Shown: positions 8,553-27,755, counted from the first letter of the stretch. The stretch is DNA of 64,000 bases from an uncultured Bacteriovoracaceae bacterium (GCA_937952285.1 CALFZE010000124.1:36649-100648), one strand, 5' to 3'. The notes: generated by a model from the letters alone, not told the origin. Made by a program: numbers and translations.

Positions 8553-10022
8553 CTAGGTCGTTCCAACGCCGGAACTTTCGAGCGCCGATCGACAGACCTC
8601 CACGTCGGAAAACACGCGTCTCTCCGTTCCGACGATCTGGTAGTCCTCGTGTCCCTTGCCGGCGACCACGCAGATGTCGCCCGGAGCGAGACCCGCGATC
8701 ACGGACTCGATGGCTTCACGGCGATCCACGATCGCTCGGTAACGGCCGCCCGCGAGGCCGCGGGTCATGTCGTCCAAGATCGAGGTCGGGGATTCGGATC
8801 GAGGGTTGTCGGAAGTGAACACGGCTTCGTCCGCGGTGAGCGCCGCGCGCGCCATGAGCGGACGCTTGGAGCGGTCACGGTCTCCCCCGCAGCCCACGAC
8901 GCAAACGAGACGCCCGCCCGAGGGGCGAAGCTCCTTCAGCGCATCGATGACTTTGAGCACGGCATCCGGCGTGTGGGCATAGTCCACGAAAACGTGACGA
9001 TTGCCCCGCGGATCGATCACCCTCTCAAGCCGTCCGCGCGCGCCGCCGAAGGAAGCGACGGCCCGACGGCAGACTTCGTCCGACACGCCGAGACCTCGGG
9101 CGACTTCCAGGCAACCCACGATATTTTCGGCGTTGTAGCGACCGAGCATCGGGCTCGCGAAAGAGGCCCCGTCGGCGCGCCGAATCTTCAGCCCGCCGAC
9201 GTCGTGGGACTCGACCTCGAAACCCTCGCCGAGGCCGACGACGTTCGCGCGTGCCCCCGGCGCGACCCTCCGAGCGATACGATGGCCCGCCTCGTTGGCG
9301 TTCAGCACGGCCACCGGCCGTTTCGCCGCGGCAACGGAATCCGCCAAGAGGCGCCCGAAGAGCTCCGCCTTGGCCGCTTCGTAAGCCTCCATGGTGCCGT
9401 GATAATCCAGATGATCCTGGGTCAGGTTCGTGAAGAGGGCCGCGTCGAAGTCGCAGCCGTCCGCCCGACGGAGCGAAAGTGCGTGGCTGCTAACCTCCAT
9501 CACGACGGCATCGACGCCATCGTCGACGAGCGAGCGCAGAAGTGTCTGGAGGGTGGGAGCGTCGGGCGTCGTGAACCCCGTTTCGAGCGCGCGCTCGGGG
9601 CTTTCCGGTTGCCTACCCGCCCAGAGCGAAACTCCGAGCGTGCCGATCTCGGCGCTTCGCCACCCGTTCTCGACGAAGATACGGCGCAGAAGACTCGCGC
9701 AGGTCGTCTTGCCGTTCGTCCCGGTAACGCCGACGAGCTTCAGGCGTCGACTCGGAAAGCGGCAGGACTCGGCCGAAGCGAGCGCCAACTCGCGCCGAAG
9801 GTCCGCGCGGCGTTCGTAACTCGTCAGCGCGGCATCGCGATCGTAAAGCGTGGCGTCGACGAACACGCGCGCGGGCGCGCGGGCGAGGAGCTGCGCGCGC
9901 GTTTCGGCGGGCTGCTCGGCGAAGAGGCAGACGACCTCGTCCGACCCCGACGGTGCCTGACGGGAGTCCCAGATCCACACGCCTTGGGAACTCTCGATCC
10001 GGGGAAACTTCTCGACTCTCAT
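8553..10022 (-). CDS. murE: UDP-N-acetylmuramoyl-L-alanyl-D-glutamate--2,6-diaminopimelate ligase
   Basis: GVTGTNGKTT P-loop, DYAHTPDA motif. 489 aa. Confidence 0.9.
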   Translation of the reverse strand: MRVEKFPRIESSQGVWIWDSRQAPSGSDEVVCLFAEQPAETRAQLLARAPARVFVDATLYDRDAALTSYERRADLRRELALASAESCRFPSRRLKLVGVTGTNGKTTCASLLRRIFVENGWRSAEIGTLGVSLWAGRQPESPERALETGFTTPDAPTLQTLLRSLVDDGVDAVVMEVSSHALSLRRADGCDFDAALFTNLTQDHLDYHGTMEAYEAAKAELFGRLLADSVAAAKRPVAVLNANEAGHRIARRVAPGARANVVGLGEGFEVESHDVGGLKIRRADGASFASPMLGRYNAENIVGCLEVARGLGVSDEVCRRAVASFGGARGRLERVIDPRGNRHVFVDYAHTPDAVLKVIDALKELRPSGGRLVCVVGCGGDRDRSKRPLMARAALTADEAVFTSDNPRSESPTSILDDMTRGLAGGRYRAIVDRREAIESVIAGLAPGDICVVAGKGHEDYQIVGTERRVFSDVEVCRSALESSGVGTT

Positions 10023-13618: not shown

Positions 13619-14452
13619 ATGGGACTTCGCATTAATACGAACCAGATCGCCGTGAACGCTCAACGTAACCTCCGCGGCAACCAAGCCACGCTTCAAGGTT
13701 CTTCCGAGAAGCTCGCTTCGGGTTACCGTATCAACAAGTCGGCCGACGACGCCGCCGGTCTCGCGATCAGCGATAACCTCGGCGGTATGGTCCGCTCGTA
13801 CCAACAAGCGGGTCGTAACGCTCAAGACGGTATCTCCTTCGTTCAGGTCGCCGAAGGCGGCATGGGTGAAGTCGGTAACATGCTCAACCGTCTCCGCGAA
13901 CTCTCGGTCCAAGCCGCTTCCGATACGATCGGCTCGCGTGAACGCGAGTTCCTCGACCGCGAAGCGCAACAGCTCAAACTCGAAGTTGAACGCGTCGCCC
14001 AGTCGACCGAGTTCAACGGCACCAAACTCTTGAACGGTTCGGGCACCAAGCTCGACTTCCAAATCGGCGTGAACAACGACGACTTCCTCGACCGGATCGG
14101 TTACGACCCGTCGCAGACGAACGTTTCCGCGGACGCCCTCGGTATCAGCGGAATCAACCTCGCCGACAAAGCGACGGCGCAAGGTGGTCTTAACAACATC
14201 GATAACGCGATCCTCGTTCTGAACAGCAACCGCGCAACGCTCGGTGCCCTTCAGAACCGCCTGACCTCGACGTACGCGAGCACGGAAATCGCGGTCGAGA
14301 ACTTCAGCGCCGCCAAGAGCCGTATCCGCGACACGGATTTCGCGTCGGTCACGGCTGATATGACCCGCGATATGGTCAAGACCCAAGCCTCGACGGCCGT
14401 CTTGAGCCAAGCGAACTCGTCCACCCAAATGGCCCTCCGCCTCTTGGGCTAA
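13619..14452 (+). CDS. fliC: Flagellin (short, D0/D1-only, 277 aa)
   Basis: MGLRINTNQIAVNAQRNL N-terminus and LSQANSSTQMALRLLG C-terminus. SD AAGGAG. Confidence 0.95.
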   Translation: MGLRINTNQIAVNAQRNLRGNQATLQGSSEKLASGYRINKSADDAAGLAISDNLGGMVRSYQQAGRNAQDGISFVQVAEGGMGEVGNMLNRLRELSVQAASDTIGSREREFLDREAQQLKLEVERVAQSTEFNGTKLLNGSGTKLDFQIGVNNDDFLDRIGYDPSQTNVSADALGISGINLADKATAQGGLNNIDNAILVLNSNRATLGALQNRLTSTYASTEIAVENFSAAKSRIRDTDFASVTADMTRDMVKTQASTAVLSQANSSTQMALRLLG

Positions 14453-14481
14453 GACCCTCCTCGATCGTCAAAGTTCTGACG

Positions 14482-14523
14482 CCGGAAATTCCCTCCAAGC
14501 GGGGGAATTTCCGGCTTTTTTTT
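14482..14523 (+). terminator. Rho-independent terminator after flagellin 1
   Basis: CCGGAAATTCCC-loop-GGGGAATTTCCGG stem followed by CTTTTTTTTT. Confidence 0.65.
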
Positions 14524-14667
14524 GCCCTTCATACAAAGAAAATAATCGGCTTCGCTTCCCTGCGACGCACGAGATCAATTCCAATGTCTCTGAAGACATT
14601 CTGCACAGAGTCAATTTAACAATTCACGCCTTCTTGATGCGACCTTAAGAATCTTTCCAAAGTCGCC

Positions 14668-14694
14668 TCAAGACCTCCTCCCCATCACCGATAG
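14668..14694 (+). promoter_or_regulatory. Sigma-28-like promoter candidate TCAAG-N15-CCGATAG for flagellin 2, about 315 nt upstream of the ATG
   Basis: Direct motif reading, coordinates +/-1. Confidence 0.35.
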
Positions 14695-14985
14695 CGCCCA
14701 TGTGCGAGGAGAGTCAGCTCTTCGCCGACACCTACTCCCAGGTGGATCTGCCGTGCGCTCCATTCGCGCGCGACTGTCTCCCAGGGTCGGAAGGAAAGGA
14801 GGTTCGGAAGACGGAACGGAGGTTTGACTAAGGAAGGACTCTGCCAACGGGGTCGGGAAATGATCTCCCCTGGCAGCTGTCAAAGACTGATTTTTTTCTG
14901 ACTACTGAGAGCCACGGAATCAACAGGCTCCTTGTTCGAGAAGGCCGGCAGCCGACTCGTTCATGAATCAAACACGGAGGTGAAA

Positions 14986-15009
14986 ATGAACACGTTTGAT
15001 GGAGACTAA
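14986..15009 (+). other. Conserved 7-codon uORF (MNTFDGD) ending 2 nt before the flagellin 2 ATG
   Basis: Same arrangement as upstream of flagellin 1 (SD GGAGGTG, stop TAA, AA, ATG). Coordinates +/-1. Confidence 0.3.
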
Positions 15010-15011
15010 AA

Positions 15012-15845
15012 ATGGGACTTCGTATCAATACTAACCAGATCGCGGTGAACGCTCAGCGCAACTTGCGAAACAACCAAGCCGTTTTGCAAGGCTCTTCCGA
15101 GAAACTCGCTTCGGGTTCCCGGATCAACAAGTCGGCCGACGACGCCGCTGGTCTCGCGATCAGCGACAACCTCGGCGGTATGGTCCGCTCGTACCAACAA
15201 GCGGGTCGTAACGCTCAAGATGGTATCTCTTTCGTGCAAGTCGCCGAAGGCGGCATGGGCGAAATCGGCAACATGTTGAACCGTCTGCGCGAGCTCTCGG
15301 TGCAAGCGTCTTCGGACACGATCGGCAACCGCGAGCGAGAGTTCCTCGATCGCGAAGCGCAACAGCTCAAGCTCGAAATGGAACGCGTCGCCCAGTCGAC
15401 CGAGTTTAACGGCACCAAGCTCCTCTCGGGGCAAGGCACCAAGCTCGACTTCCAAATCGGCGTGAACAACGACGACTTCCTTGACCGGATCTCCTACGAT
15501 CCGTCTCAAACGAACGTCTCGGTTGACGCGCTCGGCATGAGCGGAATCAACTTGTCCGACAAGGCCGCGGCCCAATCGGGTCTCGCCAACATCGACAACG
15601 CGATTCTCGTGTTGAACAGCAACCGCGCGACGCTCGGTGCTCTTCAAAACCGCCTGACCTCGACCTACGCGAGCACGGAAATCGCGGTCGAGAACTTCAG
15701 CGCCGCCAAGAGCCGTATCCGCGACACGGATTTCGCGTCGGTCACGGCTGATATGACCCGCGATATGGTCAAGACCCAAGCCTCGACAGCCGTCTTGAGC
15801 CAAGCCAACCAGTCCACCCAAATGGCTCTCCGCCTCTTGGGCTAA
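15012..15845 (+). CDS. fliC: Flagellin paralog 2 (277 aa), tandem duplicate of 13619..14452
   Basis: Near-identical protein. The last ~200 nt are almost identical at the DNA level while the 5' part carries many synonymous differences. Confidence 0.95.
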   Translation: MGLRINTNQIAVNAQRNLRNNQAVLQGSSEKLASGSRINKSADDAAGLAISDNLGGMVRSYQQAGRNAQDGISFVQVAEGGMGEIGNMLNRLRELSVQASSDTIGNREREFLDREAQQLKLEMERVAQSTEFNGTKLLSGQGTKLDFQIGVNNDDFLDRISYDPSQTNVSVDALGMSGINLSDKAAAQSGLANIDNAILVLNSNRATLGALQNRLTSTYASTEIAVENFSAAKSRIRDTDFASVTADMTRDMVKTQASTAVLSQANQSTQMALRLLG

Positions 15846-15918
15846 GACCGGATCCTTTGACCTGACCTTGAATGCGGAAGATGAGCTGAGATCCTAAGCA
15901 GAGTCGAATCAGAAAGAC

Positions 15919-15958
15919 GGCCTCCGGAGGCGAAAGCTTCCGGGGGCCTTTTTGTTTT
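15919..15958 (+). terminator. Rho-independent terminator after flagellin 2
   Basis: GGCCTCCGGAGG-loop-CTTCCGGGGGCC stem followed by TTTTTGTTTT. Confidence 0.6.
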
Positions 15959-16199
15959 CGGCGAAAACAAACTCGCCCAAGGCGGATTCTCTCCTCCCTA
16001 ACCTCACGCAAACCCTTCGTTGCTCATGACGCACGCTCGGAGCACATAGAAGCTTGACCCAAGTTTCGCCATGACGCACCTCCGACCCTCACGCTCCGTC
16101 TATCGGGCCTTCATCCCAAAATCGAGGCCTCAGAGCTTCAATCAAATTATTGAATTTACTCAATTTTTTGACGACCTGATTTTTTTTGACGCATCACGC

Positions 16200-16226
16200 T
16201 AAAGTTTTGACGCGCGCAGTCGATAT
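16200..16226 (+). promoter_or_regulatory. Sigma-28 promoter candidate TAAAGTTT-N11-GTCGATAT for flagellin 3
   Basis: 8/8 match to the sigma-28 -35 box and 6/8 to the -10 box, about 115 nt upstream of the ATG. Confidence 0.5.
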
Positions 16227-16342
16227 GTGACTCAGAGCGTTAAACGGTGTCCAGCGGAGGCAACGGAACCTTCGAGGGAGACTTGCAACGCCAAATGACG
16301 CAACGCAGCAATAGTGCGGCGTTGCTTAGGGAGGGTTACTCA

Positions 16343-17173
16343 ATGGGTCTTCGTATTCAAACCAACATTGCGAGCGTGAACGCTCAACGCAACCTGCGCC
16401 AAAATAGCGGCGGGGCCGAACGTTCGATGGAACGCCTCGGCAGCGGCTTCCGAATCAACAAATCCATGGACGACGTCGCCGGCCTCGCGATTAGCGAAAC
16501 GATGAAGGGCCAGCTACGGGGTCTCGGACAAGCCGAGCGAAACGCGCAGGACGGTATCTCCTTCGTGCAGGTGGCCGAATCGGGCCTCAACGAAACCTCC
16601 AACTTGCTCAACCGTGTTCGGGAACTCGCAACCCAAGCCGCGTCCGACACCATCGGCGATACGGAACGTGGGTTCGTGAACATTGAAGTCCAACAGCTCG
16701 TGACCGAAATGGATCGGATCGCGACGACGACCGAATACTCCGGTTCTCGACTCCTGGATGGCTCGGGCCAAACGCTCGACTTCCACGTCGGCTTCCGAGG
16801 CGACCCCTCGAAAAACGTGATCAGCTACGACGCCGGCGCCGCGAACGCACAAACTTCCGCGCTCGGCGTGGATGGAGTGAGCGTTGCCTCTAAAGATGAC
16901 GCACGGGGTACGCTCGACGTCATCGACCAGGCCATCTCGAAAGTCGCCGCGATGCGAGCCGGCTTCGGTGCGATTCAAAGCCGGATGAGCTCGACGATCA
17001 GCAACATCTCGGTCTACCGAGAAGCTCTCAGTGCCGCGAACTCCCGGATTCGAGATGCCGACATGGCCGAAGAATCCGCGAACCTCGCGAAGGCCAACAT
17101 CTTGCAACAAGCCGGTACCGCGGTCTTGGCGCAAGCCAACAGCGCGAACGCTCTCGCCCTGAAGCTGCTCTAG
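16343..17173 (+). CDS. fliC: Flagellin paralog 3 (divergent, about 276 aa)
   Basis: Start taken at the internal MGLRIQTNIASVNAQRNL with SD GGGAGGG, not at the track ORF start 16247. C-terminus ANSANALALKLL. Confidence 0.9.
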   Translation: MGLRIQTNIASVNAQRNLRQNSGGAERSMERLGSGFRINKSMDDVAGLAISETMKGQLRGLGQAERNAQDGISFVQVAESGLNETSNLLNRVRELATQAASDTIGDTERGFVNIEVQQLVTEMDRIATTTEYSGSRLLDGSGQTLDFHVGFRGDPSKNVISYDAGAANAQTSALGVDGVSVASKDDARGTLDVIDQAISKVAAMRAGFGAIQSRMSSTISNISVYREALSAANSRIRDADMAEESANLAKANILQQAGTAVLAQANSANALALKLL

Positions 17174-17358: not shown

Positions 17359-17949
17359 TCAGAGCGCGAACTGACAGATCTTAAGCGTGCCTCGATCCGA
17401 AAAGGCGACGACCCCGGCGCTGGAATCCATCTCCCGAATTGCGTACAGACTCTCACGCAAACGTCCGGCGGCCTTGGCCGACCCGGCGAGCGCCGGAGGC
17501 GCTTCGCCGCGCGAGTAATACGCATTTTCAAGATCGCTGATCTGACCAACCAACGTATCGACGAGACCCATAAGGCTTTCTTGCCAGTTCTTCTCGGTCC
17601 AACCGTTCGTCAGCGTCATCCCGGCTCCGCAGACCTCTTTGATATCCTGCAAAGTCCGCTCCATGGCGCCTCGCTTGGCGGCGACCAACGCGATGATTTG
17701 GCTTTCGATCGACTCGCCGCCGATGACCTTGTCCGCTTTCTGGATGAGGGCATCCAGGCCGCGGTCGCCGCCCCCCGCGCCGACGTCGCCGGGATTCTTG
17801 TCCGCGCTCAACCTCGCCCGCTTGACCCGTGTCTTCTCCGCCGAAGCCGGAAGACGGGACGGGCCCGCGGAAGCGCTTGCGCAGGCGCCGAGGCCCAGGA
17901 ACGCCCCGAGCACGAGACCCATGGCCGTGATTTTGGATTTTTTCTTCAT
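17359..17949 (-). CDS. Lipoprotein of unknown function (196 aa)
   Basis: Real start at the internal MKKKSKITAMGLVLGAFLGLGAC (lipobox LGAC), with SD AAGGAG. The upstream portion of the 459-aa track ORF is an Arg-rich antisense artefact. The ATGA overlap with the upstream gene indicates coupling. Confidence 0.6.
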   Translation of the reverse strand: MKKKSKITAMGLVLGAFLGLGACASASAGPSRLPASAEKTRVKRARLSADKNPGDVGAGGGDRGLDALIQKADKVIGGESIESQIIALVAAKRGAMERTLQDIKEVCGAGMTLTNGWTEKNWQESLMGLVDTLVGQISDLENAYYSRGEAPPALAGSAKAAGRLRESLYAIREMDSSAGVVAFSDRGTLKICQFAL

Positions 17950-18773
17950 GTTTTCTCCTTTTCTTTCACCGACGCATCGTCGGCGATTCTGAACAACTGA
18001 ATGGAAAGCGCATAAACCTGCTTTGCTTTCGGGTCGTCGAGCGACTCCGCGGTTTCCCGACGAAAGCGACGTATCTTCTCGCGCGCCTTCGTCATTTCCT
18101 TCGGATCGAAGAGGAAGACCGTGCTCGTATGGTCGCGCTCCTCGAAAGCGTCTTGGGCAAGCGAACGTTGCGCCGCCGAAAGAATCTGCGCCTGGTAGTT
18201 CCGTAAGGCCGACGACGGCACGCTGCCGGGAGCGAGCAGTACGTCCGAGGCACGCCACCGGCCGGCCTCGTCCTTCCAGATGAGCTCGAGCCGCTTGAGC
18301 CGCTCCCAGCTTTCCTCCACGACGGAGCGGGCCAACCCGAAGCTCCGCGCCAACTTGCCGAAGTCGAGTCGAAAACCCTCCGAACGCACGAGCTCGCGCA
18401 AGGCGAGGTGCTGCCAGTCCGAGATGATCCGGAACGCGTCGAGCGAAAGACGATGCTGGGAAAGGTGCCGGCGCTGCTCGATGCGCGCGCGGGCCATGGC
18501 TTTCTGCGTCGCGCTTCGCGCGTGTTCGCTGTCGACGAGATCGCAGAAATATTCGCCCTCGCTGCCGACCCAACCCAAGCGACGGGAGATCGCCTCGGCC
18601 TTCGTTCGCGATAAGCCTTCGCGACCGCTCAAGATCGAAGACAGGCGTCCCGGGTGCAGCGCAAGATCGCGCGAGAAAGCCCGCAGCGAATAGCGAGGAT
18701 TCGCCGCCATTCGACCACGCAGCTCTTCGCGCAACCAATCGCGGTAGGACGCGACGGCATCGACTTTGCCCAT
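17946..18773 (-). CDS. HTH-domain protein of unknown function (TIGR02147-like family)
   Basis: 275 aa. The N-terminal region resembles a winged-helix/HTH. Normal amino-acid composition, and it overlaps the downstream lipoprotein start by ATGA. The family name is a tentative recollection. Confidence 0.5.
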   Translation of the reverse strand: MGKVDAVASYRDWLREELRGRMAANPRYSLRAFSRDLALHPGRLSSILSGREGLSRTKAEAISRRLGWVGSEGEYFCDLVDSEHARSATQKAMARARIEQRRHLSQHRLSLDAFRIISDWQHLALRELVRSEGFRLDFGKLARSFGLARSVVEESWERLKRLELIWKDEAGRWRASDVLLAPGSVPSSALRNYQAQILSAAQRSLAQDAFEERDHTSTVFLFDPKEMTKAREKIRRFRRETAESLDDPKAKQVYALSIQLFRIADDASVKEKEKT

Positions 18774-18893: not shown

Positions 18894-19547
18894 ATGAGCC
18901 TCACGCGGAAAACACTGCTCCTTGGCGCCGTTCTTTCGTCCTCGGCCTACGCCCAAGACTATCCCTACGACGACGAACCCTCGGGTGAAGCCCCCCTTCC
19001 GCCGGAGGGACCGACGGAAACGCCGACGCCCGCCCCCGCGCTGCCCACCGAAGGCCCCGGTCGCGCGTCGCCCAAACGCACCCGTCAGCCCTCGCTCTTT
19101 CGCGTCGCCCTCAAGGCGGGCGCAAACTTCGCCGTCCTCAGCAGCGCCGCCGCGGGAAGCCATTCGGGCATGGGCATCGAAGGCGTCGTCGCGATGGGGT
19201 GGGATCTCGCATACCAGCCGATATTCCTGGAGCTCGAGTTCGGGTACCGCAGCCACTTCATGGGCGACGACCCGCTCCACATCGTTCCGATCCGCTTCGG
19301 AACCTTCTACCGAAAACGGATGGCGCGGACCCGACTCTGGAAGCCGGGAGTCGCGGTTTCCTTCGACGCGCGCATGGAAGCTTCGGCGAACGGATCCGGC
19401 TCGGATCTGAACTTCCTGCCCGCGCTTCATCTGAGCAACCAATTCGAGTTCGGTAACTTCCTCGCGGAACCCGTCGTGAGTCTCTACCGTCTCGGCTCGA
19501 CGGGTAACTCGATCGCGGCCGCGTTCCGGCTCGGTTACCGTTACTGA
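18894..19547 (+). CDS. Outer-membrane beta-barrel protein (OmpA-like beta-barrel / OMP_b-brl family)
   Basis: Signal peptide LLLGAVLSSSAYAQ, Pro-rich linker, alternating-hydrophobic strands, C-terminal FRLGYRY aromatic end. Confidence 0.65.
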   Translation: MSLTRKTLLLGAVLSSSAYAQDYPYDDEPSGEAPLPPEGPTETPTPAPALPTEGPGRASPKRTRQPSLFRVALKAGANFAVLSSAAAGSHSGMGIEGVVAMGWDLAYQPIFLELEFGYRSHFMGDDPLHIVPIRFGTFYRKRMARTRLWKPGVAVSFDARMEASANGSGSDLNFLPALHLSNQFEFGNFLAEPVVSLYRLGSTGNSIAAAFRLGYRY

Positions 19548-19584
19548 TCCGCGTCACCGAACACGAGGTACGTAGGCAAAGTTC

Positions 19585-22551
19585 GTGCGGGGCGACTATA
19601 TTCGCCCGATGCCGTCGACATTCCTCCCGCGTTACCTCTTCCGAATTTTCCTCGGCGCGGGCGGGGGCTTCTTCGTGCCGACGGCCGCCGCCATCACCTC
19701 GGGCAGCGAATCGGTCGACGCCATTTCGGGAGGAAGCTACCGCACCTTTCGACTCCCTTCGCATCACTTGCATTTCGACGTCGAGCTCGAGCGCCTCGCC
19801 CGGTCGCTCGCGCCCCGCTTCGAGAACTACCTCGACGGGCTCCAGTCGAGGCTGAAGTTCCGTTTGAAGCGGCCGATGCCCGTCTTCTTGGTGAAACGCG
19901 GATTCGGCAACGCCTTCGTCACGTTTCCTTCGGCGGCCTCGCCTTCTTTCTCGGTCCTTTCGCCTCGGCTCACGGCGGCCGAGCTCGGCTCGCCCACTTT
20001 CCTCTACGCCGGCGACGACGAAGGCGTTTTCGACACTTTCCGACACGAAGCCATGCATTACGTGGAAGAAGACCAGCGACGGAGCTTCTGGTCCGCGCTC
20101 ATGGGCGACGCGCCTTACTCCCTCCCTTCGGGTACGGCTTGGGCCGCCGAAGCCTGGGCGGTCGTCCACGAGAAGCCCTCGAACCCCTACTCCGGACGCA
20201 TGAAAGAATCCTACTTCGGAGCGCTCATGCGCGCGAACGTGTCCGGACGCGCGACGCCCGCCCCGACCGAGTGGGACCTCAGCGCGAACAATCCGGATTG
20301 GCGACTGCTCGGCAGCCACTACGTCGTGGGCTCGAACTTCTTCGCCTTCCTGGCGCGCACGCACGGCCTCGCGAAAGTGGACGATTTTATGATCCACCGA
20401 AACGGCTTCTCGGCGAGCTCCGCCTACGAAAAAAGCTTCGGCAAAGACTTCGAGGCGCTTTACGGAGAGTTCCGACGCGAAACCGCCGACGAAGTCCGTC
20501 GTCAAAGCGCCTCGGGGGCGGCCGTCGTTTTTGACGACGACATCGGGCGCATCAACGCGTTAGGTACCACCCTGAACGGCGAAAAAATCTTCGTCGGAAG
20601 CTCGCTCGACCGAACGCCGCGCCTCTACCGGGTTTCGGCCGACGGCAAACGCGACTTGGGCTCCGCCGCGCTCTTCGAATGGATCGCTCCGTTGGGCGGT
20701 CGCCTCGCCTTCGCCCCTTGGCAATGGTCCGAGGCCCGCGTCCCGGGCGCGCTGGATTTCTTTTCGGCGGAAAGCAACGCCGAGGGCAACGAAAGCCGGC
20801 CCGGCCTCTATCGCTACCATCTCGAAGCGGGAACGCGTCGTAGGCTCCGCGGCCTGCCCCTCGCGCGTGCCGCCGTCTCGCGTGGCGACCGGGCGGGATA
20901 CTACGCTCTCGTTCAGTCGGACCCGAACGAGAATCGCTTCCGCCTGGAAGAAGGCCCCCTCGACGAAGACGGCCCGACCCGCGTGCTTTCCGAGTGGTCG
21001 GAGTTCTCCAGCGTTTCGCAGCTGCGCCAGCACCCGGAGTCCGGCGCGCTCTACTTCGCCGCCATCCGACCGGAAGGCAGTTGGGGAATCTACCGGATCG
21101 ACGCGAATCCGAACGCGACGCCGCAGCCGCTCGTCGACACGCGAGGCCAGGATCTCTTTCCGCTCGTCGATCGGGCGGGCAACGTCTTCTTTCTTTCCGA
21201 CCTGAACGGACGGAGTTTTCAGGTCTACCGCTTGGACGGCGAACGGGTTTGCCGTCTGAGCGACGAGCCGTTCTTCGTGTCGAGCTTCGGATGGGGCGCG
21301 AACGAGCGCGAGCTCTTGGCCGTGAGCCGCCGAGGCCCGAGCGAAGTCCTCGTCTCGCTTTCGACCGAAGCGCGGAACTGCGTTTCCATGGCCGAGGTCG
21401 CGGCCGCGTCGACGAGTGTTCCCTCCTTCCGGAGCACCACGGTCGCGGCGACCGAAGAATCCGCTTGGCAAGGGCTTTGGCCGGCGACCCGCGCCCTGCT
21501 CCCCCGCTACACCCGCAGCGGCGACTTCGGAGTCCAGGCGCTCCTGTCCGGCGAGTCTCCCTACAAAGACTGGTCTTGGACTCTGCTCGGCGACTGGGAA
21601 GCCACCGACGAGAACACCCATATTCTCGGGGGAACGATCGGATGGCACGCTTTCTTTCCCGTCGTTTCGCGCCTCCGGGTCGAAGCGAGCCCGCTCGCGC
21701 TCGGCTACGCGTTCGTGCCCGACGCGCGCTTCTTGAACGCGAGCCTCGAGTTGCAGCGCGAACTCGGCCATCATCTTTTCCGGGGCCGCGCGGTCGCGAC
21801 GACCCAAACGGACGATGCCGCTTCGGATCCCGACCCCTACGGGTCGGCCACGGAGATCGGCGTGGCCCACTCCTTCTCGAACACCCAGCAGTCCGCGCTG
21901 GCCGCGGCTCCCCAAAGGGGTTGGTCGCTTTCGACGGCGTTCGAGGTCAATCCGAGTTACTTCGGCCAGGCGTCCACGCGAGCCGTCCTTTCGGCCCGAC
22001 AAACTTTTCATCTGCCGATCGAATCGTTCGCGCGCAATCACTCCCTGAGCCTGAGCCTCTCCGAGACGAAAGCGTTCAACGGTCTCCTGCGGGTTCAAGG
22101 TATCGGCGGCGGCAACGGCTTCGACTACGAGATCGAGTCCGCCGTCGCGCAGGGCTACGGTTTCGGCCGTCTCGTGGGCGCCGGAGAAACCCTTTTCGCC
22201 TATCCCGATTTCCGCATGACGGCCAATCTCATCTTGAGGGGGACGCTCGCCTACGTCATCCCGTTGAACTTCCTGCGAAGCGGCCTCTCGCAAGTCGCGG
22301 GAAGGCGCTGGCTCAACCCCGAGACCTCCGCGATGAACGTCTCGTTTTTCTACGACACGACCGTCGCCCGGGACGGTGACATCGACGTTACGGAGCAGCG
22401 GGGCAGCGTCGGCATCCGAAGCGACTGGTCTCTCTGGTTGAACGAGAACCAAAGCACGGGGATCTCGGCCAGCTACATCGGCGCTTTCGAGCTTCAGGAC
22501 GAACGCGCCCTGCGCCACACTTTCGCGACGAGCGCACGGATCTACTACTGA
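19585..22551 (+). CDS. Large secreted multi-domain protein: HExxH metallopeptidase-like N-region, TolB-like beta-propeller, C-terminal beta-barrel-like domain
   Basis: HEAMHYVEE motif. PD40-like repeats (RLYRVSADGKRDL, ALYFAAIRPEGSWGIYRID, FFLSDLNGRSFQVYRLDG). C-terminal RIYY. 988 aa, 37 nt downstream of the OMP gene. Confidence 0.55.
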   Translation: MRGDYIRPMPSTFLPRYLFRIFLGAGGGFFVPTAAAITSGSESVDAISGGSYRTFRLPSHHLHFDVELERLARSLAPRFENYLDGLQSRLKFRLKRPMPVFLVKRGFGNAFVTFPSAASPSFSVLSPRLTAAELGSPTFLYAGDDEGVFDTFRHEAMHYVEEDQRRSFWSALMGDAPYSLPSGTAWAAEAWAVVHEKPSNPYSGRMKESYFGALMRANVSGRATPAPTEWDLSANNPDWRLLGSHYVVGSNFFAFLARTHGLAKVDDFMIHRNGFSASSAYEKSFGKDFEALYGEFRRETADEVRRQSASGAAVVFDDDIGRINALGTTLNGEKIFVGSSLDRTPRLYRVSADGKRDLGSAALFEWIAPLGGRLAFAPWQWSEARVPGALDFFSAESNAEGNESRPGLYRYHLEAGTRRRLRGLPLARAAVSRGDRAGYYALVQSDPNENRFRLEEGPLDEDGPTRVLSEWSEFSSVSQLRQHPESGALYFAAIRPEGSWGIYRIDANPNATPQPLVDTRGQDLFPLVDRAGNVFFLSDLNGRSFQVYRLDGERVCRLSDEPFFVSSFGWGANERELLAVSRRGPSEVLVSLSTEARNCVSMAEVAAASTSVPSFRSTTVAATEESAWQGLWPATRALLPRYTRSGDFGVQALLSGESPYKDWSWTLLGDWEATDENTHILGGTIGWHAFFPVVSRLRVEASPLALGYAFVPDARFLNASLELQRELGHHLFRGRAVATTQTDDAASDPDPYGSATEIGVAHSFSNTQQSALAAAPQRGWSLSTAFEVNPSYFGQASTRAVLSARQTFHLPIESFARNHSLSLSLSETKAFNGLLRVQGIGGGNGFDYEIESAVAQGYGFGRLVGAGETLFAYPDFRMTANLILRGTLAYVIPLNFLRSGLSQVAGRRWLNPETSAMNVSFFYDTTVARDGDIDVTEQRGSVGIRSDWSLWLNENQSTGISASYIGAFELQDERALRHTFATSARIYY

Positions 22552-22553
22552 CC

Positions 22554-22976
22554 CTAGACCGGGCGCATGACTTTGGCGCCCATCTTCCGTTCGCGGTCGA
22601 TGAGTTCCAGAAGCCGGCCCACGGTCACCCGAAAGCGATTGGGGGTGTAGGGCCGCTGCAGCACGGCGAGGGCGCCCAACGAAAGCGCGCGATTTTCGAC
22701 CTCGTTCGCCATCATTCCCTGGTATCGGTGCGAAAGCACGACGCGCGCCGCGGGCTCGAGCTCCTTCAACTTCGTCAGACAGTAAAGTCCGTCGCGTTTT
22801 GGCAGCTGCAGTTCGACGAAGACGAAGTCGGGCCTCAACTTCTGCCAGGCGCTCATCCATCCCGAACCCGCCCGGGCCCACTCCACGACCTGGATGCCAT
22901 TCGCTTCCAGATTCGCGCGGAGTTCGGAGGCGTTTTCCTCGTAGTAATCCACGATCATAGCCGTGCAGGTCGCCAT
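22554..22976 (-). CDS. Atypical single-domain response-regulator receiver (pseudo-receiver: D13Y, D57E, K109R by CheY numbering)
   Basis: Aligns to CheY: MIVDYYEEN (beta1), FVFVELQLPKRDG (beta3, Asp57 replaced by Glu), VLSH (beta4), VLQRPY (beta5). Start taken at MATCTAM. Confidence 0.6.
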   Translation of the reverse strand: MATCTAMIVDYYEENASELRANLEANGIQVVEWARAGSGWMSAWQKLRPDFVFVELQLPKRDGLYCLTKLKELEPAARVVLSHRYQGMMANEVENRALSLGALAVLQRPYTPNRFRVTVGRLLELIDRERKMGAKVMRPV

Positions 22977-22998
22977 GGACTCAGTGTAACATGCTCCC

Positions 22999-24693
22999 GT
23001 GCCTTCACCCCGCTTCTTCGCGCGCGCGTCGGTCTTCAAGCTGCTCCCGGCCCTCTTGGTCGGGCTGATCCCGTTCGACCTCCTTGACCAGGCTCTGCTC
23101 TCCCGCCTCTACCGCATTCGAGGCGAACGACCGGGCCCGGCGGCCATCAAAGTCGTGCTCGTTCGCGACCCCGAGGAGATGTCGGATTTCCTGCGCGTCG
23201 TGCGGCCGCTCACGGATCTGCCCTGCATCAACTTGAGCCGGTGGAATCCGGGCGAACGTTCCTGTCTCTTTTTGCCGGTCGAGGAGATCTCGCGCCCTCG
23301 GGAGATCTTCACGTTCGCGCCCAGCCTCGCGCGCTTTCTGGGGCGGGAAGTCCCGCCTCCCTTCCACGCCGACGGCGGGATTCAACCGCTCTACTACGGG
23401 AACATTGCCGTCTTCCGGCCCCTGACCGTCCCGGAAGCCATCGCTTCGGTCAAATCGCTCTTCGGTCCCGGCGACATCCTGGTCTTCGCGCCGACGAGTC
23501 CCGTCCCCACGATCCCCGCCGAAACGCCGGCCGGAAGCCTGAACCAAGTCGAGATCGCCTTGAACATGGTGGGCAACGCTTTCGAAGAGCGCTCCCTCGC
23601 TTCGACGTCGCGCACCCTCCAGGTCATGCACTCGGCCGCGGCCTCGGCGCTCGTCGCCTGGATCCTGTACTCCTATCCGATCGTCCTGACGGCGGTGCTC
23701 ACCCTCTTGCTCGGCCTGGTCCAGCTCATCCTCGCGCTCGTCGTCTTCGATACGCTCGACGTCCAACTGCTCGCCGTCGCGCCGCTCGTGGCGATGCTCA
23801 CGGCCTACCTCCTCGGCCTGAGCGATCGGCTCAACAGCCGTGAACGCGAAGCCTGGTCCCTGGAACAGCGATCCGAGAGCCTGCGCGAGCTCGACGAGAT
23901 GAAATCCAATTTTCTCTCCCTCATTTCCCACGACCTCAAGACGCCCATCGCCAAGATGCAGGCCATGCTCGAACGCATGGCCCACGGCGAACTCGGGTCG
24001 CTCACCCCGACGCAGAACGAAACGCTCTCCCGCATCCTCTCGGCGAACGGGCACCTCCAACGAACGATCTCGACGCTGCTGCTGCTCAACCGCATCGAGA
24101 CGGGCCAGTTTCAGATCCGGCGGGAACCCACCGACCTTCTCGAGCTGATCGACGAAACCACGAAGGCGCACCAAGGTCCCGCGCAGGATCGCAACATCCG
24201 CATCGAGAAGGAGCTCGAGCCGCTCTTCCTGGCCGAGGTCGATCGCGGCCTCATCCGCGAAGTCATCAACAACCTCCTGGACAACGCGCTGAAGTACTCG
24301 CCCGCCGCCTCCGTCATTTCGGTCCGCTGCGGAGAGCTCGACAACTCGCCCGACCTTTCCCCGCCGCAACCGGCCATCTGGATCGAGATCCAAGACCGCG
24401 GCACGGGTATCCCGCCGCAGGACCGCGAACGCGTCCGGCAGAAGTTCGTGCGGGGCTCGAACGAAAACACGGCCGCGGACCAATCCGTCAAAGGCACCGG
24501 CCTCGGACTCTTCCTGAGCGGCTTCTTCGTCGAGAAACACGCGGGCCACATGCGCATCGTCTCGCGGACGCGCGGAGAGCCCTACGACCCGGGCTCGCCG
24601 GCCGCCCAGTACTTCGCCGAGGACGAGTCCGGTACCGTGGTGCGGATCAGCCTTCCCGTCGACGAAAGCTTCCTGACGCCCGAAGCCACGTAA
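22999..24693 (+). CDS. Sensor histidine kinase with N-terminal extracytoplasmic sensor domain and multi-TM region
   Basis: H-box SLISHDLKTPIAKM. HATPase_c N, G1 and G2 boxes (NNLLDNALKYS, DRGTGIP, GTGLGL). 564 aa. Confidence 0.8.
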   Translation: MPSPRFFARASVFKLLPALLVGLIPFDLLDQALLSRLYRIRGERPGPAAIKVVLVRDPEEMSDFLRVVRPLTDLPCINLSRWNPGERSCLFLPVEEISRPREIFTFAPSLARFLGREVPPPFHADGGIQPLYYGNIAVFRPLTVPEAIASVKSLFGPGDILVFAPTSPVPTIPAETPAGSLNQVEIALNMVGNAFEERSLASTSRTLQVMHSAAASALVAWILYSYPIVLTAVLTLLLGLVQLILALVVFDTLDVQLLAVAPLVAMLTAYLLGLSDRLNSREREAWSLEQRSESLRELDEMKSNFLSLISHDLKTPIAKMQAMLERMAHGELGSLTPTQNETLSRILSANGHLQRTISTLLLLNRIETGQFQIRREPTDLLELIDETTKAHQGPAQDRNIRIEKELEPLFLAEVDRGLIREVINNLLDNALKYSPAASVISVRCGELDNSPDLSPPQPAIWIEIQDRGTGIPPQDRERVRQKFVRGSNENTAADQSVKGTGLGLFLSGFFVEKHAGHMRIVSRTRGEPYDPGSPAAQYFAEDESGTVVRISLPVDESFLTPEAT

Positions 24694-26747: not shown

Positions 26748-27755
26748 ATGTCGAGCGGCAAGAAACGCATCCTTCTCCTTCACACCGGCGGAACCCTCGG
26801 AATGACGCTTTCGGGGCAACCCGACGACAGCGCCCGCTTCGTCGATTCGCTCCGCCAGCACGCGCCGCGGATCTTCGAGATCGCCGATCTCCACGTCGAG
26901 ATTCTCTTCAACAAGGACTCCTCGAACATGGTTCCGGGAGACTGGCTCAAAGTCGCGCGGGCGCTCTCCCAACGCATGAGCGAGTGGGATGGGTTCGTCG
27001 TCACGCACGGCACCGACACGATGGTCTTCACGGCTTCGGCGCTGAGCTACATGCTTCCGTCGCCCTCGAAGCCGATCGTCATGACCGGTTCCCAGCGCCC
27101 GATGGCCGACGCCAAGTCCGACGCCGCCCGCAACCTCATCGCCGCCGTCGAGATCGCGTGCGAGGCCCGCGTGAAGGAAGTCACGATCTTCTTCGACAGC
27201 TACCTGCTCCGCGGAAACCGCGCGAAGAAAGTCTCGATCCCGAGTTTCCAGGCTTTCGAGAGCCCAAACCTTCCGCCCCTCGCGCGCGTCGGCCTTCGCA
27301 CGGACTACGTGCCGGCTCCTTATCCCTCGATCGAGTCGAATCCGGACTTCCGCATCGAAACGCGCGTCGCCGCGCTCGCGCTCTTTCCGGGCATGGACAT
27401 CGAGCTCTTCTACGGTCTCATCGACAAGGGCGTCCGCGGGCTCGTGTTGAAGGCCTTCGGCCCGGGCGATATCCCGCTCGGCGAGCATTCCGTGGTCCAC
27501 CTCATCCGCGCGCTCACGGAGAAGGGTATTCCCACCGTCATTTGCTCACAGGCGCTCTTCGGCGCCGTCGACCTGAACCTCTACGAAACGGGACGCGCGG
27601 CCGCGACCGCGGGCGCGATTTCGGCGGGCGACATGACCTGGGAAGCCGCGCTCGTGAAGATGATGGTCCTGCTCGGACGCGGCTACCCGCTCGGCGCTTT
27701 CCGCGCCGCCTTCCGCAAGAACCTCGCGGGCGAACTGACCGAGGAGTTGATGTGA
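26748..27755 (+). CDS. ansA: L-asparaginase (type I family)
   Basis: HTGGTLGM and HGTDTM motifs. Confidence 0.8.
   Translation: MSSGKKRILLLHTGGTLGMTLSGQPDDSARFVDSLRQHAPRIFEIADLHVEILFNKDSSNMVPGDWLKVARALSQRMSEWDGFVVTHGTDTMVFTASALSYMLPSPSKPIVMTGSQRPMADAKSDAARNLIAAVEIACEARVKEVTIFFDSYLLRGNRAKKVSIPSFQAFESPNLPPLARVGLRTDYVPAPYPSIESNPDFRIETRVAALALFPGMDIELFYGLIDKGVRGLVLKAFGPGDIPLGEHSVVHLIRALTEKGIPTVICSQALFGAVDLNLYETGRAAATAGAISAGDMTWEAALVKMMVLLGRGYPLGAFRAAFRKNLAGELTEELM

Follow-up and report, generated by a model that had tools for sequence, protein, structure and literature searches.

A putative divergent WD40-like Omp85 protein with a conserved gluzincin-type active site in an uncultured Bacteriovoracaceae bacterium

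The Omp85/TpsB superfamily has been divided into ten subfamilies, one of which is termed 'WD40-like' or 'WD40-Omp85' (Heinz & Lithgow 2014, PMC4104836). Its Pfam profile comprises PF01103 together with PF07676 repeats (Table S2, PMC4104836), and the Phyre2 assignments for the ~95 members in UniProt are BamA/TamA at about 100%, TolB at about 100% and, as the 'best aminopeptidase hit', the M1/M9 gluzincins 1z5h, 4kxd, 3qnf, 4ar1 and 4ar9 at ~99% (Table S3, PMC4104836). The text of that paper treats the propeller alone, as a BamA-BamB-like fusion, and the peptidase active site is not discussed there (PMC4104836); in 2024 the subfamily was restated as having 'divergent WD40 and peptidase domains' (PMC11358297). 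Our full-text literature searches found no functional study of the WD40-like Omp85 family. Here we consider a gene for a 988-amino-acid (aa) protein, preceded by a gene for a 217-aa small outer-membrane protein (OMP), in a 64,000-nucleotide (nt) stretch of DNA (below, the window) from an uncultured Bacteriovoracaceae bacterium (GCA_937952285.1, CALFZE010000124.1:36649-100648).

Two other systems are relevant for the interpretation of such a protein. The patatin-like Omp85 proteins PlpD and FplA ('type Vd') also have an Omp85 barrel fused to an N-terminal hydrolase, and the best precedent for an Omp85 barrel that keeps an enzyme in the periplasm is PlpD: its patatin domain, long thought to be secreted, was found in 2024 to be periplasmic (PMC11116518). 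PlpD differs from the 988-aa protein in being a patatin lipase with one POTRA that forms homodimers, whereas the 988-aa protein combines a predicted zinc peptidase with a propeller and has no POTRA in its model; hence the type Vd-like layout, with a POTRA between the passenger and the barrel, is not seen here. BepA is an M48 periplasmic metalloprotease associated with the β-barrel assembly machinery (BAM); it is a soluble protein of its own and carries a TPR domain. As a zinc HExxH peptidase working on OMPs on the periplasmic side of an Omp85 machine, it may be the closest known working model for the role of a peptidase-Omp85 fusion, and quality control of OMPs in the manner of BepA is an appealing analogy. 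BepA belongs to a different peptidase family (M48) and is not fused, and an action of the 988-aa protein on OMPs would be hypothetical.

The best explanation of our observations, to which we assign a probability of about 0.75, is that the 988-aa protein is a divergent WD40-like Omp85, that is, an outer-membrane-anchored, periplasm-facing zinc peptidase, and that the small OMP is not its conserved partner. The assignment was made by comparing the domain architecture with the published tables, and the four architectural features of the subfamily that were compared are present in the predicted structure: an M1/M9-like gluzincin is followed by a TolB-like PD40 propeller and a BamA/TamA-like 16-stranded barrel, with no POTRA, the length falls near the ~950-1000 aa of the family, and Myxococcota occur both among the distant relatives retrieved here and among many of the listed members. 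The protein seems to represent a rare and very divergent subclade with about a dozen full-length relatives and no Pfam match of its own, in which Arg or Thr precedes HExxH and, in the window protein, the loop-6 motif (V/L)RG(Y/F) has degenerated to LFAY. The initial annotation of this DNA had seen no named family for the domain combination; the combination in fact matches a subfamily that is already catalogued and functionally uncharacterised. The remaining structural claims of that annotation, namely the two open reading frames (ORFs) with the gap between them, a zincin-like N-terminal region with an HEAMH motif, a TolB/PD40-like central propeller, a C-terminal outer-membrane barrel ending in RIYY and a barrel fold of the 217-aa protein, were all confirmed, as described below.

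The 988-aa ORF is a genuine gene rather than a chance ORF of GC-rich DNA, because it has homologs at 43% and 39% identity, 744 profile representatives and a confident AlphaFold2 model. The two homologs (E 1e-230 and 4e-199, respectively) were the only ones found by a word-indexed search, and the representatives came from an exhaustive HMMER profile search with the family (cluster representatives at E<=1e-3, mostly of ~950-1000 aa). About a dozen of them are full-length relatives with 23-43% identity (P0001-P0006, P0008-P0012), while the other matches cover mainly the N-terminal domain (N-domain) and the propeller at 16-20% identity, the named ones being from Myxococcota. In the databases, the family members are called 'hypothetical protein' or 'Tol biopolymer transport system component'. 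All conservation counts below refer to an alignment of 50 relatives with 16-43% identity to the window protein. Modelling with a 50-sequence alignment yielded three domains, with a mean predicted local distance difference test (pLDDT) score of 88.5 and a predicted template modelling (pTM) score of 0.89. The signal-peptide-like N-terminus had pLDDT <50 in the model, and the ortholog in one of the homologous loci (L002) has a clear signal peptide, MHRIPSPLSSLFFVFSLATTSVRA. An alternative in-frame ATG occurs at 19609.

Several other searches added little. The phmmer comparison of the 988-aa protein with PDB sequences gave no match, profiles alone giving matches; the homolog search with the 50-sequence profile was flooded by generic proteins with PD40 propellers (kinases, tricorn, amidohydrolases); among the GTDB species representatives no close relative was detectable with the conserved peptide patterns used, which were taken from the close-subclade alignment; and exact-match look-ups of the two window proteins yielded zero contigs. 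The Rfam scan of the window found zero RNA genes. The window DNA has ~64% G+C, and long chance ORFs are common in it: a 773-aa shadow ORF (20560-22881, minus strand) lies antisense to the 988-aa gene, and 271-aa shadow ORFs lie antisense to the flagellin genes. Neither are genes, and the pattern is typical for high-GC DNA.

In the model, the motif H154-E155-A-M-H158 (window 20044-20058) lies on the helix 148-164, and E189 (window 20149-20151) on the 'glutamate helix' 185-194. Residues H154, E155, H158, E189, E196 and Y246 (the latter at window 20320-22) are invariant in the relatives (50/50), and the family consensus of the N-domain reads CHExxHYV...WFxEGLAxYxE, the mostly Cys before HExxH being replaced by Arg or Thr in the window subclade. 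Upstream of HExxH there is a conserved segment F(G/N)NA(F/Y)V, represented by GFGNAFV at 106-112 in the window protein (among the aligned relatives, N109 is present in 49/50 and A110 in 43/50). A profile of the N-domain hits the M1 aminopeptidase 3cia with E 4.5e-5 (about 1e-4 for the full family profile), with WFxEG placed on WLNEG and hYlvG on PYVKG; it also matches, weakly (E 0.28), the M9 collagenase ColG, with HExxH...WFxEGxA over HEYTH...WFDEGTA.

In M1 and M9 enzymes the glutamate of this motif is the third zinc ligand, and the tyrosine of the M1 motif is the transition-state-stabilising one. Hence E189, 31 residues past H158, is a candidate third zinc ligand, since it is invariant and aligned to the Glu of WLNEG in M1 and, weakly, to that of WFDEG in ColG; the initial annotation had left this ligand to be checked. 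The profile matches and the helix layout in the model thus point to a gluzincin-type peptidase fold, shared with M1 (LTA4H, ColAP 3cia, tricorn factor F3), M9 collagenases and Peptidase_MA_2: HExxH on one helix, the Glu ligand in W-x-x-E-G/A on the long helix that follows, and, further downstream, a Tyr aligned to the M1 catalytic Tyr. The spacing between HExxH and the Glu is different, being 31 residues here versus 18 in M1 and ~28 in M9, and the N-domain is much smaller than in M1 enzymes, with F(G/N)NA(F/Y)V standing upstream in place of the exopeptidase motif GxMEN. No GxMEN was found upstream of HExxH in the 988-aa protein; therefore it is not an M1 member, and exopeptidase specificity should not be assumed. 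An M1 aminopeptidase proper was thus rejected by the missing GxMEN together with the ligand spacing, and a pseudo-enzyme by the invariant catalytic set. As this set is invariant among relatives sharing only 16-43% identity, the peptidase is predicted to be active.

The propeller comprises ~23-24 strands grouped by four in the model, which gives six blades. TolB of the Tol-Pal system is the top match of this region (residues ~313-601) by both profile and structure: the family profile matches TolB with E 3.5e-34, and Foldseek matches the model to TolB 3iax with E 8.9e-7. PD40 Pfam repeats were detected in 28 of the 50 relatives, but not in the window protein itself. The common element is a six-bladed PD40-type propeller; TolB differs in being a soluble periplasmic protein with its own N-terminal α/β domain and neither peptidase nor barrel. 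A BamB-like propeller was considered and rejected, as the propeller consists of six TolB-like blades. Between the propeller and the barrel, the model contains no POTRA-like β-α-α-β-β unit, only the linker listed in Table 1. The absence of POTRA is typical of the non-POTRA Omp85 subfamilies (PMC4104836).

The C-terminal domain is modelled as 16 long strands spanning residues 635-985 and ends with an aromatic residue, RIYY; a soluble β-sandwich, the alternative to a membrane barrel, was not seen. The best Foldseek matches of the barrel are BamA 7tsz (E 1.4e-7), TamA 4c00 and 8us1, Sam50 7e4h and the BamA of F. johnsoniae 9n2e, the E-values of the BamA/TamA/Sam50 matches ranging from 1e-7 to 1e-5. 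Loop 6 has 50 residues (832-881) and is located between strands 11 and 12, and strand 13 carries the motif FFYD (921-924), that is, F922-Y-D924-T-T, in which F and D of FxDxG are present and G is absent (D is found in 12/50 relatives). As Foldseek matches, a weak match of the family profile to the C-terminal part of BamA 8xnb (E 0.01), sub-threshold PF01103 in relatives and the positions of the loop-6 and strand-13 motifs all agree, we identify the domain as an Omp85-type transmembrane barrel and not a soluble sandwich. Shared with BamA, TamA and Sam50 are the 16 strands, the long loop 6 between strands 11 and 12, the F-x-D part of the strand-13 motif and the C-terminal aromatic residue; these proteins have POTRA domains where the 988-aa protein has an enzyme and a propeller, they retain the lid-lock Arg-Gly that it has lost, and the sequence similarity is marginal (profile E 0.01). 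As a separate observation, the close subclade shows high conservation of the segment IPLNFL..G.S...GRRWLNPE (~residues 892-913, window 22258-22323), which lies between strands 12 and 13, exceeds the matching turn of the main family in length and has no BamA counterpart that could be named.

The window protein deviates from its relatives at the loop-6 motif. A 'lid-lock' formed by the loop-6 motif and the strand-13 F-x-D has been described (PMC11358297), and loop 6 of most relatives has the Omp85 hallmark (V/L)RG(Y/F), the Arg being present in 42/50 and the Gly in 49/50. The window protein is the only aligned sequence that lacks the Gly, and is alone in lacking both Arg and Gly. Since the flanking residues align in frame, LFAY is a true substitution rather than an artefact of sequencing; one possible meaning is that the barrel of the window protein is a pure anchor.

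Several points weigh against the assignment as a periplasmic zinc peptidase of the WD40-like Omp85 subfamily. Pfam and NCBIfam scans of the 988-aa protein gave zero matches, including Peptidase_MA_2 (PF13485) and Omp85 (PF01103) at their gathering scores, and Pfam support comes from distant relatives only, with scores under the gathering thresholds: besides PD40, Peptidase_MA_2 was found in 6/50 relatives (best E 3.6e-5, 24 bits versus the cut-off of 32.4) and PF01103 in 3/50 (17-20 bits versus the cut-off of 24). One relative, P0149, has Peptidase_MA_2, PD40 and Omp85 all in one chain. Of the profile searches by which the initial annotation had proposed to check the three regions, Pfam gave no match for the protein itself; family or N-domain profiles matched TolB, 3cia and, weakly, BamA. 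In loop 6, LFAY stands at 870-873 (window 22192-22203) in place of LRGY, the Arg-Gly being absent, and a barrel without it may differ in behaviour from canonical Omp85 barrels. The side of the membrane on which the N-terminal domains would lie is deduced from the strand and loop order.

If the proposed reading holds, the protein would be exported by the Sec pathway, and its C-terminal barrel would be inserted into the outer membrane, holding the gluzincin-type zinc metallopeptidase and the six-bladed TolB-like propeller at the periplasmic face with no POTRA between them. Propellers bind or gate substrates in tricorn, DPP-IV and prolyl oligopeptidases, and by analogy the propeller could be a substrate-binding or gating module; the protein would trim or degrade polypeptides of the envelope on the inner side of the outer membrane. 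We place the peptidase and the propeller on the periplasmic side, because loop 6, which lies between strands 11 and 12, and the strand-13 F-x-D follow the canonical order, in which the N-terminus of strand 1 is periplasmic. The initial annotation had instead suggested a self-anchored surface protease or binding protein. In such a reading, analogous to type V secretion, the barrel would move the peptidase and the propeller to the cell surface, to act on prey or environmental proteins. Synteny with Bdellovibrionota and Bacteriovorax metagenome-assembled genomes (MAGs) suggests a Bdellovibrionota-type predator, a kind of organism that employs many secreted hydrolases; a linker of 33 residues (602-634) could in principle span a barrel, the lost loop-6 Arg-Gly lid-lock could loosen the lumen-plugging loop, and the topology of non-POTRA Omp85 proteins was left open by Heinz & Lithgow (PMC4104836). 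Nevertheless, the N-terminal appendages of Omp85 barrels have been found to be periplasmic in every characterised case, including the supposed exception, PlpD (PMC11116518), which favours a periplasmic module. Besides the strand and loop order, surface display would also require a folded module of ~550 residues (zincin and propeller) to pass a 16-stranded barrel with loop 6 in the lumen, and propellers of the TolB type are periplasmic proteins. Hence we regard surface display as unlikely.

The structural neighbours of the barrel and the propeller could also be read in another way, as a non-catalytic assembly or scaffold factor, either a fused BamB-BamA platform or a Tol-Pal-like tether, with the zincin serving as a binding module. 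Indeed, the insertases BamA, TamA and Sam50 are structurally nearest to the barrel, and the nearest match of the propeller, TolB, is non-enzymatic and associated with Pal and peptidoglycan. However, HExxH, E189 and Y246 are retained in 50/50 relatives down to 16% identity, as would be expected for an active enzyme, there are no POTRA domains to take in substrates, the propeller has six TolB-like blades versus eight in BamB (PMC11358297), and the window protein has lost the loop-6 Arg-Gly that is conserved in insertase Omp85 proteins. This possibility therefore seems quite improbable: the invariant catalytic set speaks for a working enzyme and against a role like that of BamB, which would be structural only.

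A more specific scheme, extending the proposed periplasmic peptidase, may be outlined, although we consider it speculative and rather unlikely as a whole. The family might represent self-contained outer-membrane quality control, in which the barrel would recognise stalled or mis-targeted β-barrel or lipoprotein substrates at the membrane and pass them on to its own zinc peptidase, gated by the propeller, in effect uniting BamA and BepA in a single polypeptide; in the window subclade, the loss of the lid-lock might leave the barrel unlocked, allowing for peptide export or prey-directed action.

The 217-aa protein encoded upstream has a Sec signal peptide with the predicted cleavage ...AYA|QDYPYDD, a Pro-rich disordered linker at ~residues 27-65 and an 8-stranded barrel at 68-216 with the C-terminus GYRY. 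AlphaFold2 models the barrel as eight long strands with block pLDDT mostly about 80-94, and the best Foldseek match is NspA 1p4t (E 1e-6, TM-score 0.67 on the target); OmpX, Ail, OmpA-TM, PagL and OmpW come next. Pfam and NCBIfam gave zero matches, and four homologs were found at 38-46% identity, so far in Bdellovibrionota-type contigs only. Based on the model, the protein is a genuine small 8-stranded OMP of the OmpX/NspA-like class. With OmpX, NspA, Ail and OmpA-TM it shares the eight long antiparallel strands, the signal peptide and the C-terminal aromatic residue (TM-scores of 0.54-0.67 on the targets), and it differs in the ~40-residue Pro-rich N-terminal extension and the lack of a sequence-family match. 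Right after the predicted cleavage site, all family members (5/5) have the motif QDYPY(D/E)(D/E) (window 18957-18980), with an identical AQDYPY core, which could be a sorting or interaction tag.

The initial annotation treated the two genes as an operon. They are indeed adjacent on one strand, separated by 37 nt, no convincing terminator was found in the 19547-19585 gap (terminator-like sites occur at the chance level in the promoter and terminator scan), and both products are predicted outer-membrane barrels, which would fit a true two-gene module, a dedicated operon whose products cooperate, with the small OMP as a substrate, receptor or co-anchor. In the related loci the two genes are not found together: no related small OMP is present beside the large gene in the loci of the 988-aa homologs (L001-L005), and no relative of the large gene (tblastn, E<=1e-5) is present in the six small-OMP loci with both flanks (L006 and L008-L012). 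Upstream of the 988-aa homologs, L001 has a gene for an unrelated 353-aa protein, L002 one for a divergent M14 peptidase, and L003-5 a DUF6607 gene. The 353-aa protein was considered as a counterpart of the small OMP and rejected, as there is no similarity.

The small OMP has a conserved context of its own. In L008-L012 the block consists of flagellin(s), the small OMP, a convergent response regulator and an asparaginase (the L008 sequence ends just past the response regulator), and a histidine kinase and an NtrC-type activator are also kept in L009 and L010, which are Bdellovibrionota/Bacteriovorax MAG loci. The same block occurs in the window, with flagellins at 13619-17173, the response regulator at 22554-23039 (minus strand), the kinase, the NtrC-like activator and the asparaginase at 26748-27755, and the slot that separates the small OMP from the response regulator (19547-22554) is filled by the 988-aa gene. 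In L008-L011 this slot is empty, with only 35-56 nt from the small OMP to the response-regulator gene. In L012 the slot (8636-9873) contains a transposase-like 268-aa ORF, and in L006 (6687-12033) it is occupied by ~5.3 kb of unrelated genes (HNH, HTH_31, DUF3011). As the slot is empty in L008-L011 and differently filled in L012 and L006, it is variable, and the adjacency of the 988-aa gene and the small OMP is best read as a lineage-specific insertion.

There is also a weak σ70-like promoter match, TAGGCA-18-TATATT, inside the gap (19573-19602, plus strand; one found versus 0.4 expected), whose -10 element ends 7 nt upstream of the alternative ATG at 19609. With this site, the unlinked loci and the slot taken by other genes all standing against it, a dedicated two-gene module is very improbable. 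Thus, of the operon claim the adjacency stands and the conserved pairing does not: the two genes are probably chance neighbours and not a conserved functional pair. They may still be co-transcribed in the window genome, which would imply no shared function.

Table 1. Coordinates of the two genes and of the regions of the 988-aa protein in the window.
Feature	Window coordinates	Strand	Residues	Remarks
217-aa small outer-membrane protein ORF	18894..19547	+		Sec signal peptide, Pro-rich linker, 8-stranded barrel
988-aa peptidase / TolB-propeller / Omp85 ORF (predicted domains), stop codon included	19585..22551	+		GTG start at 19585
Signal-peptide-like N-terminus of the 988-aa protein	19585..19695	+	~1-37	Basic residues, then LFRIFLGAGGGFFVPTAAA; read from sequence
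Predicted gluzincin-type (peptidase-MA-like) domain	19738..20502	+	52-306	α/β domain (AlphaFold2), profile matches
Six-bladed TolB/PD40-like β-propeller	20521..21387	+	313-601	AlphaFold2, profile, Foldseek
Linker	21388..21486	+	602-634 (33 residues)	DSSP of the AlphaFold2 model: just two short helices
Predicted 16-stranded Omp85-type β-barrel	21487..22548	+	635-988	AlphaFold2, Foldseek

Several features of the surrounding genes were also observed. The three flagellin genes of the window are in tandem (13619-14452, 15012-15845 and 16247-17173, plus strand), and the first two are near-identical at the N- and C-terminal regions. Upstream of the small OMP, a divergent gene at 17946-18773 (minus strand) encodes a DUF4423 / TIGR02147 ('Fsuc_second') protein, with no positional counterpart in the related loci examined. 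The response-regulator ORF at 22554-23039 (161 aa, TTG start) exceeds its orthologs of 141-142 aa by ~20 residues and overlaps the divergent histidine-kinase ORF at 22999-24693 (plus strand); its true start is probably further downstream. In L012, the 268-aa ORF (9002-9808, plus strand) contains 'GGNHIHIIMR', by eye reminiscent of tyrosine transposases of the IS200/RAYT type. In L003, as well as in L004 and L005, the P0003 ortholog is flanked on the same strand by the DUF6607 gene upstream (L003 4956-5921) and by a gene for a 216-aa protein with a weak Peptidase_M10 match downstream (L003 9010-9660).

Taken together, a previously unannotated 988-aa 'hypothetical protein' can now be placed, as a probable member, in a recognised and experimentally unstudied Omp85 subfamily, and a false lead, the apparent operon with the small OMP, is removed. 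A family model of its own would help annotation, since none of the current Pfam and NCBIfam models recognises the window subclade. Strict conservation of the peptidase active site is documented here family-wide, a point absent from the text of the original catalogue paper (PMC4104836). A testable hypothesis follows, that of an outer-membrane-anchored periplasmic zinc peptidase. Current knowledge is not overturned by these observations, and the conserved active site and the degenerate lid-lock provide handles for experiments.

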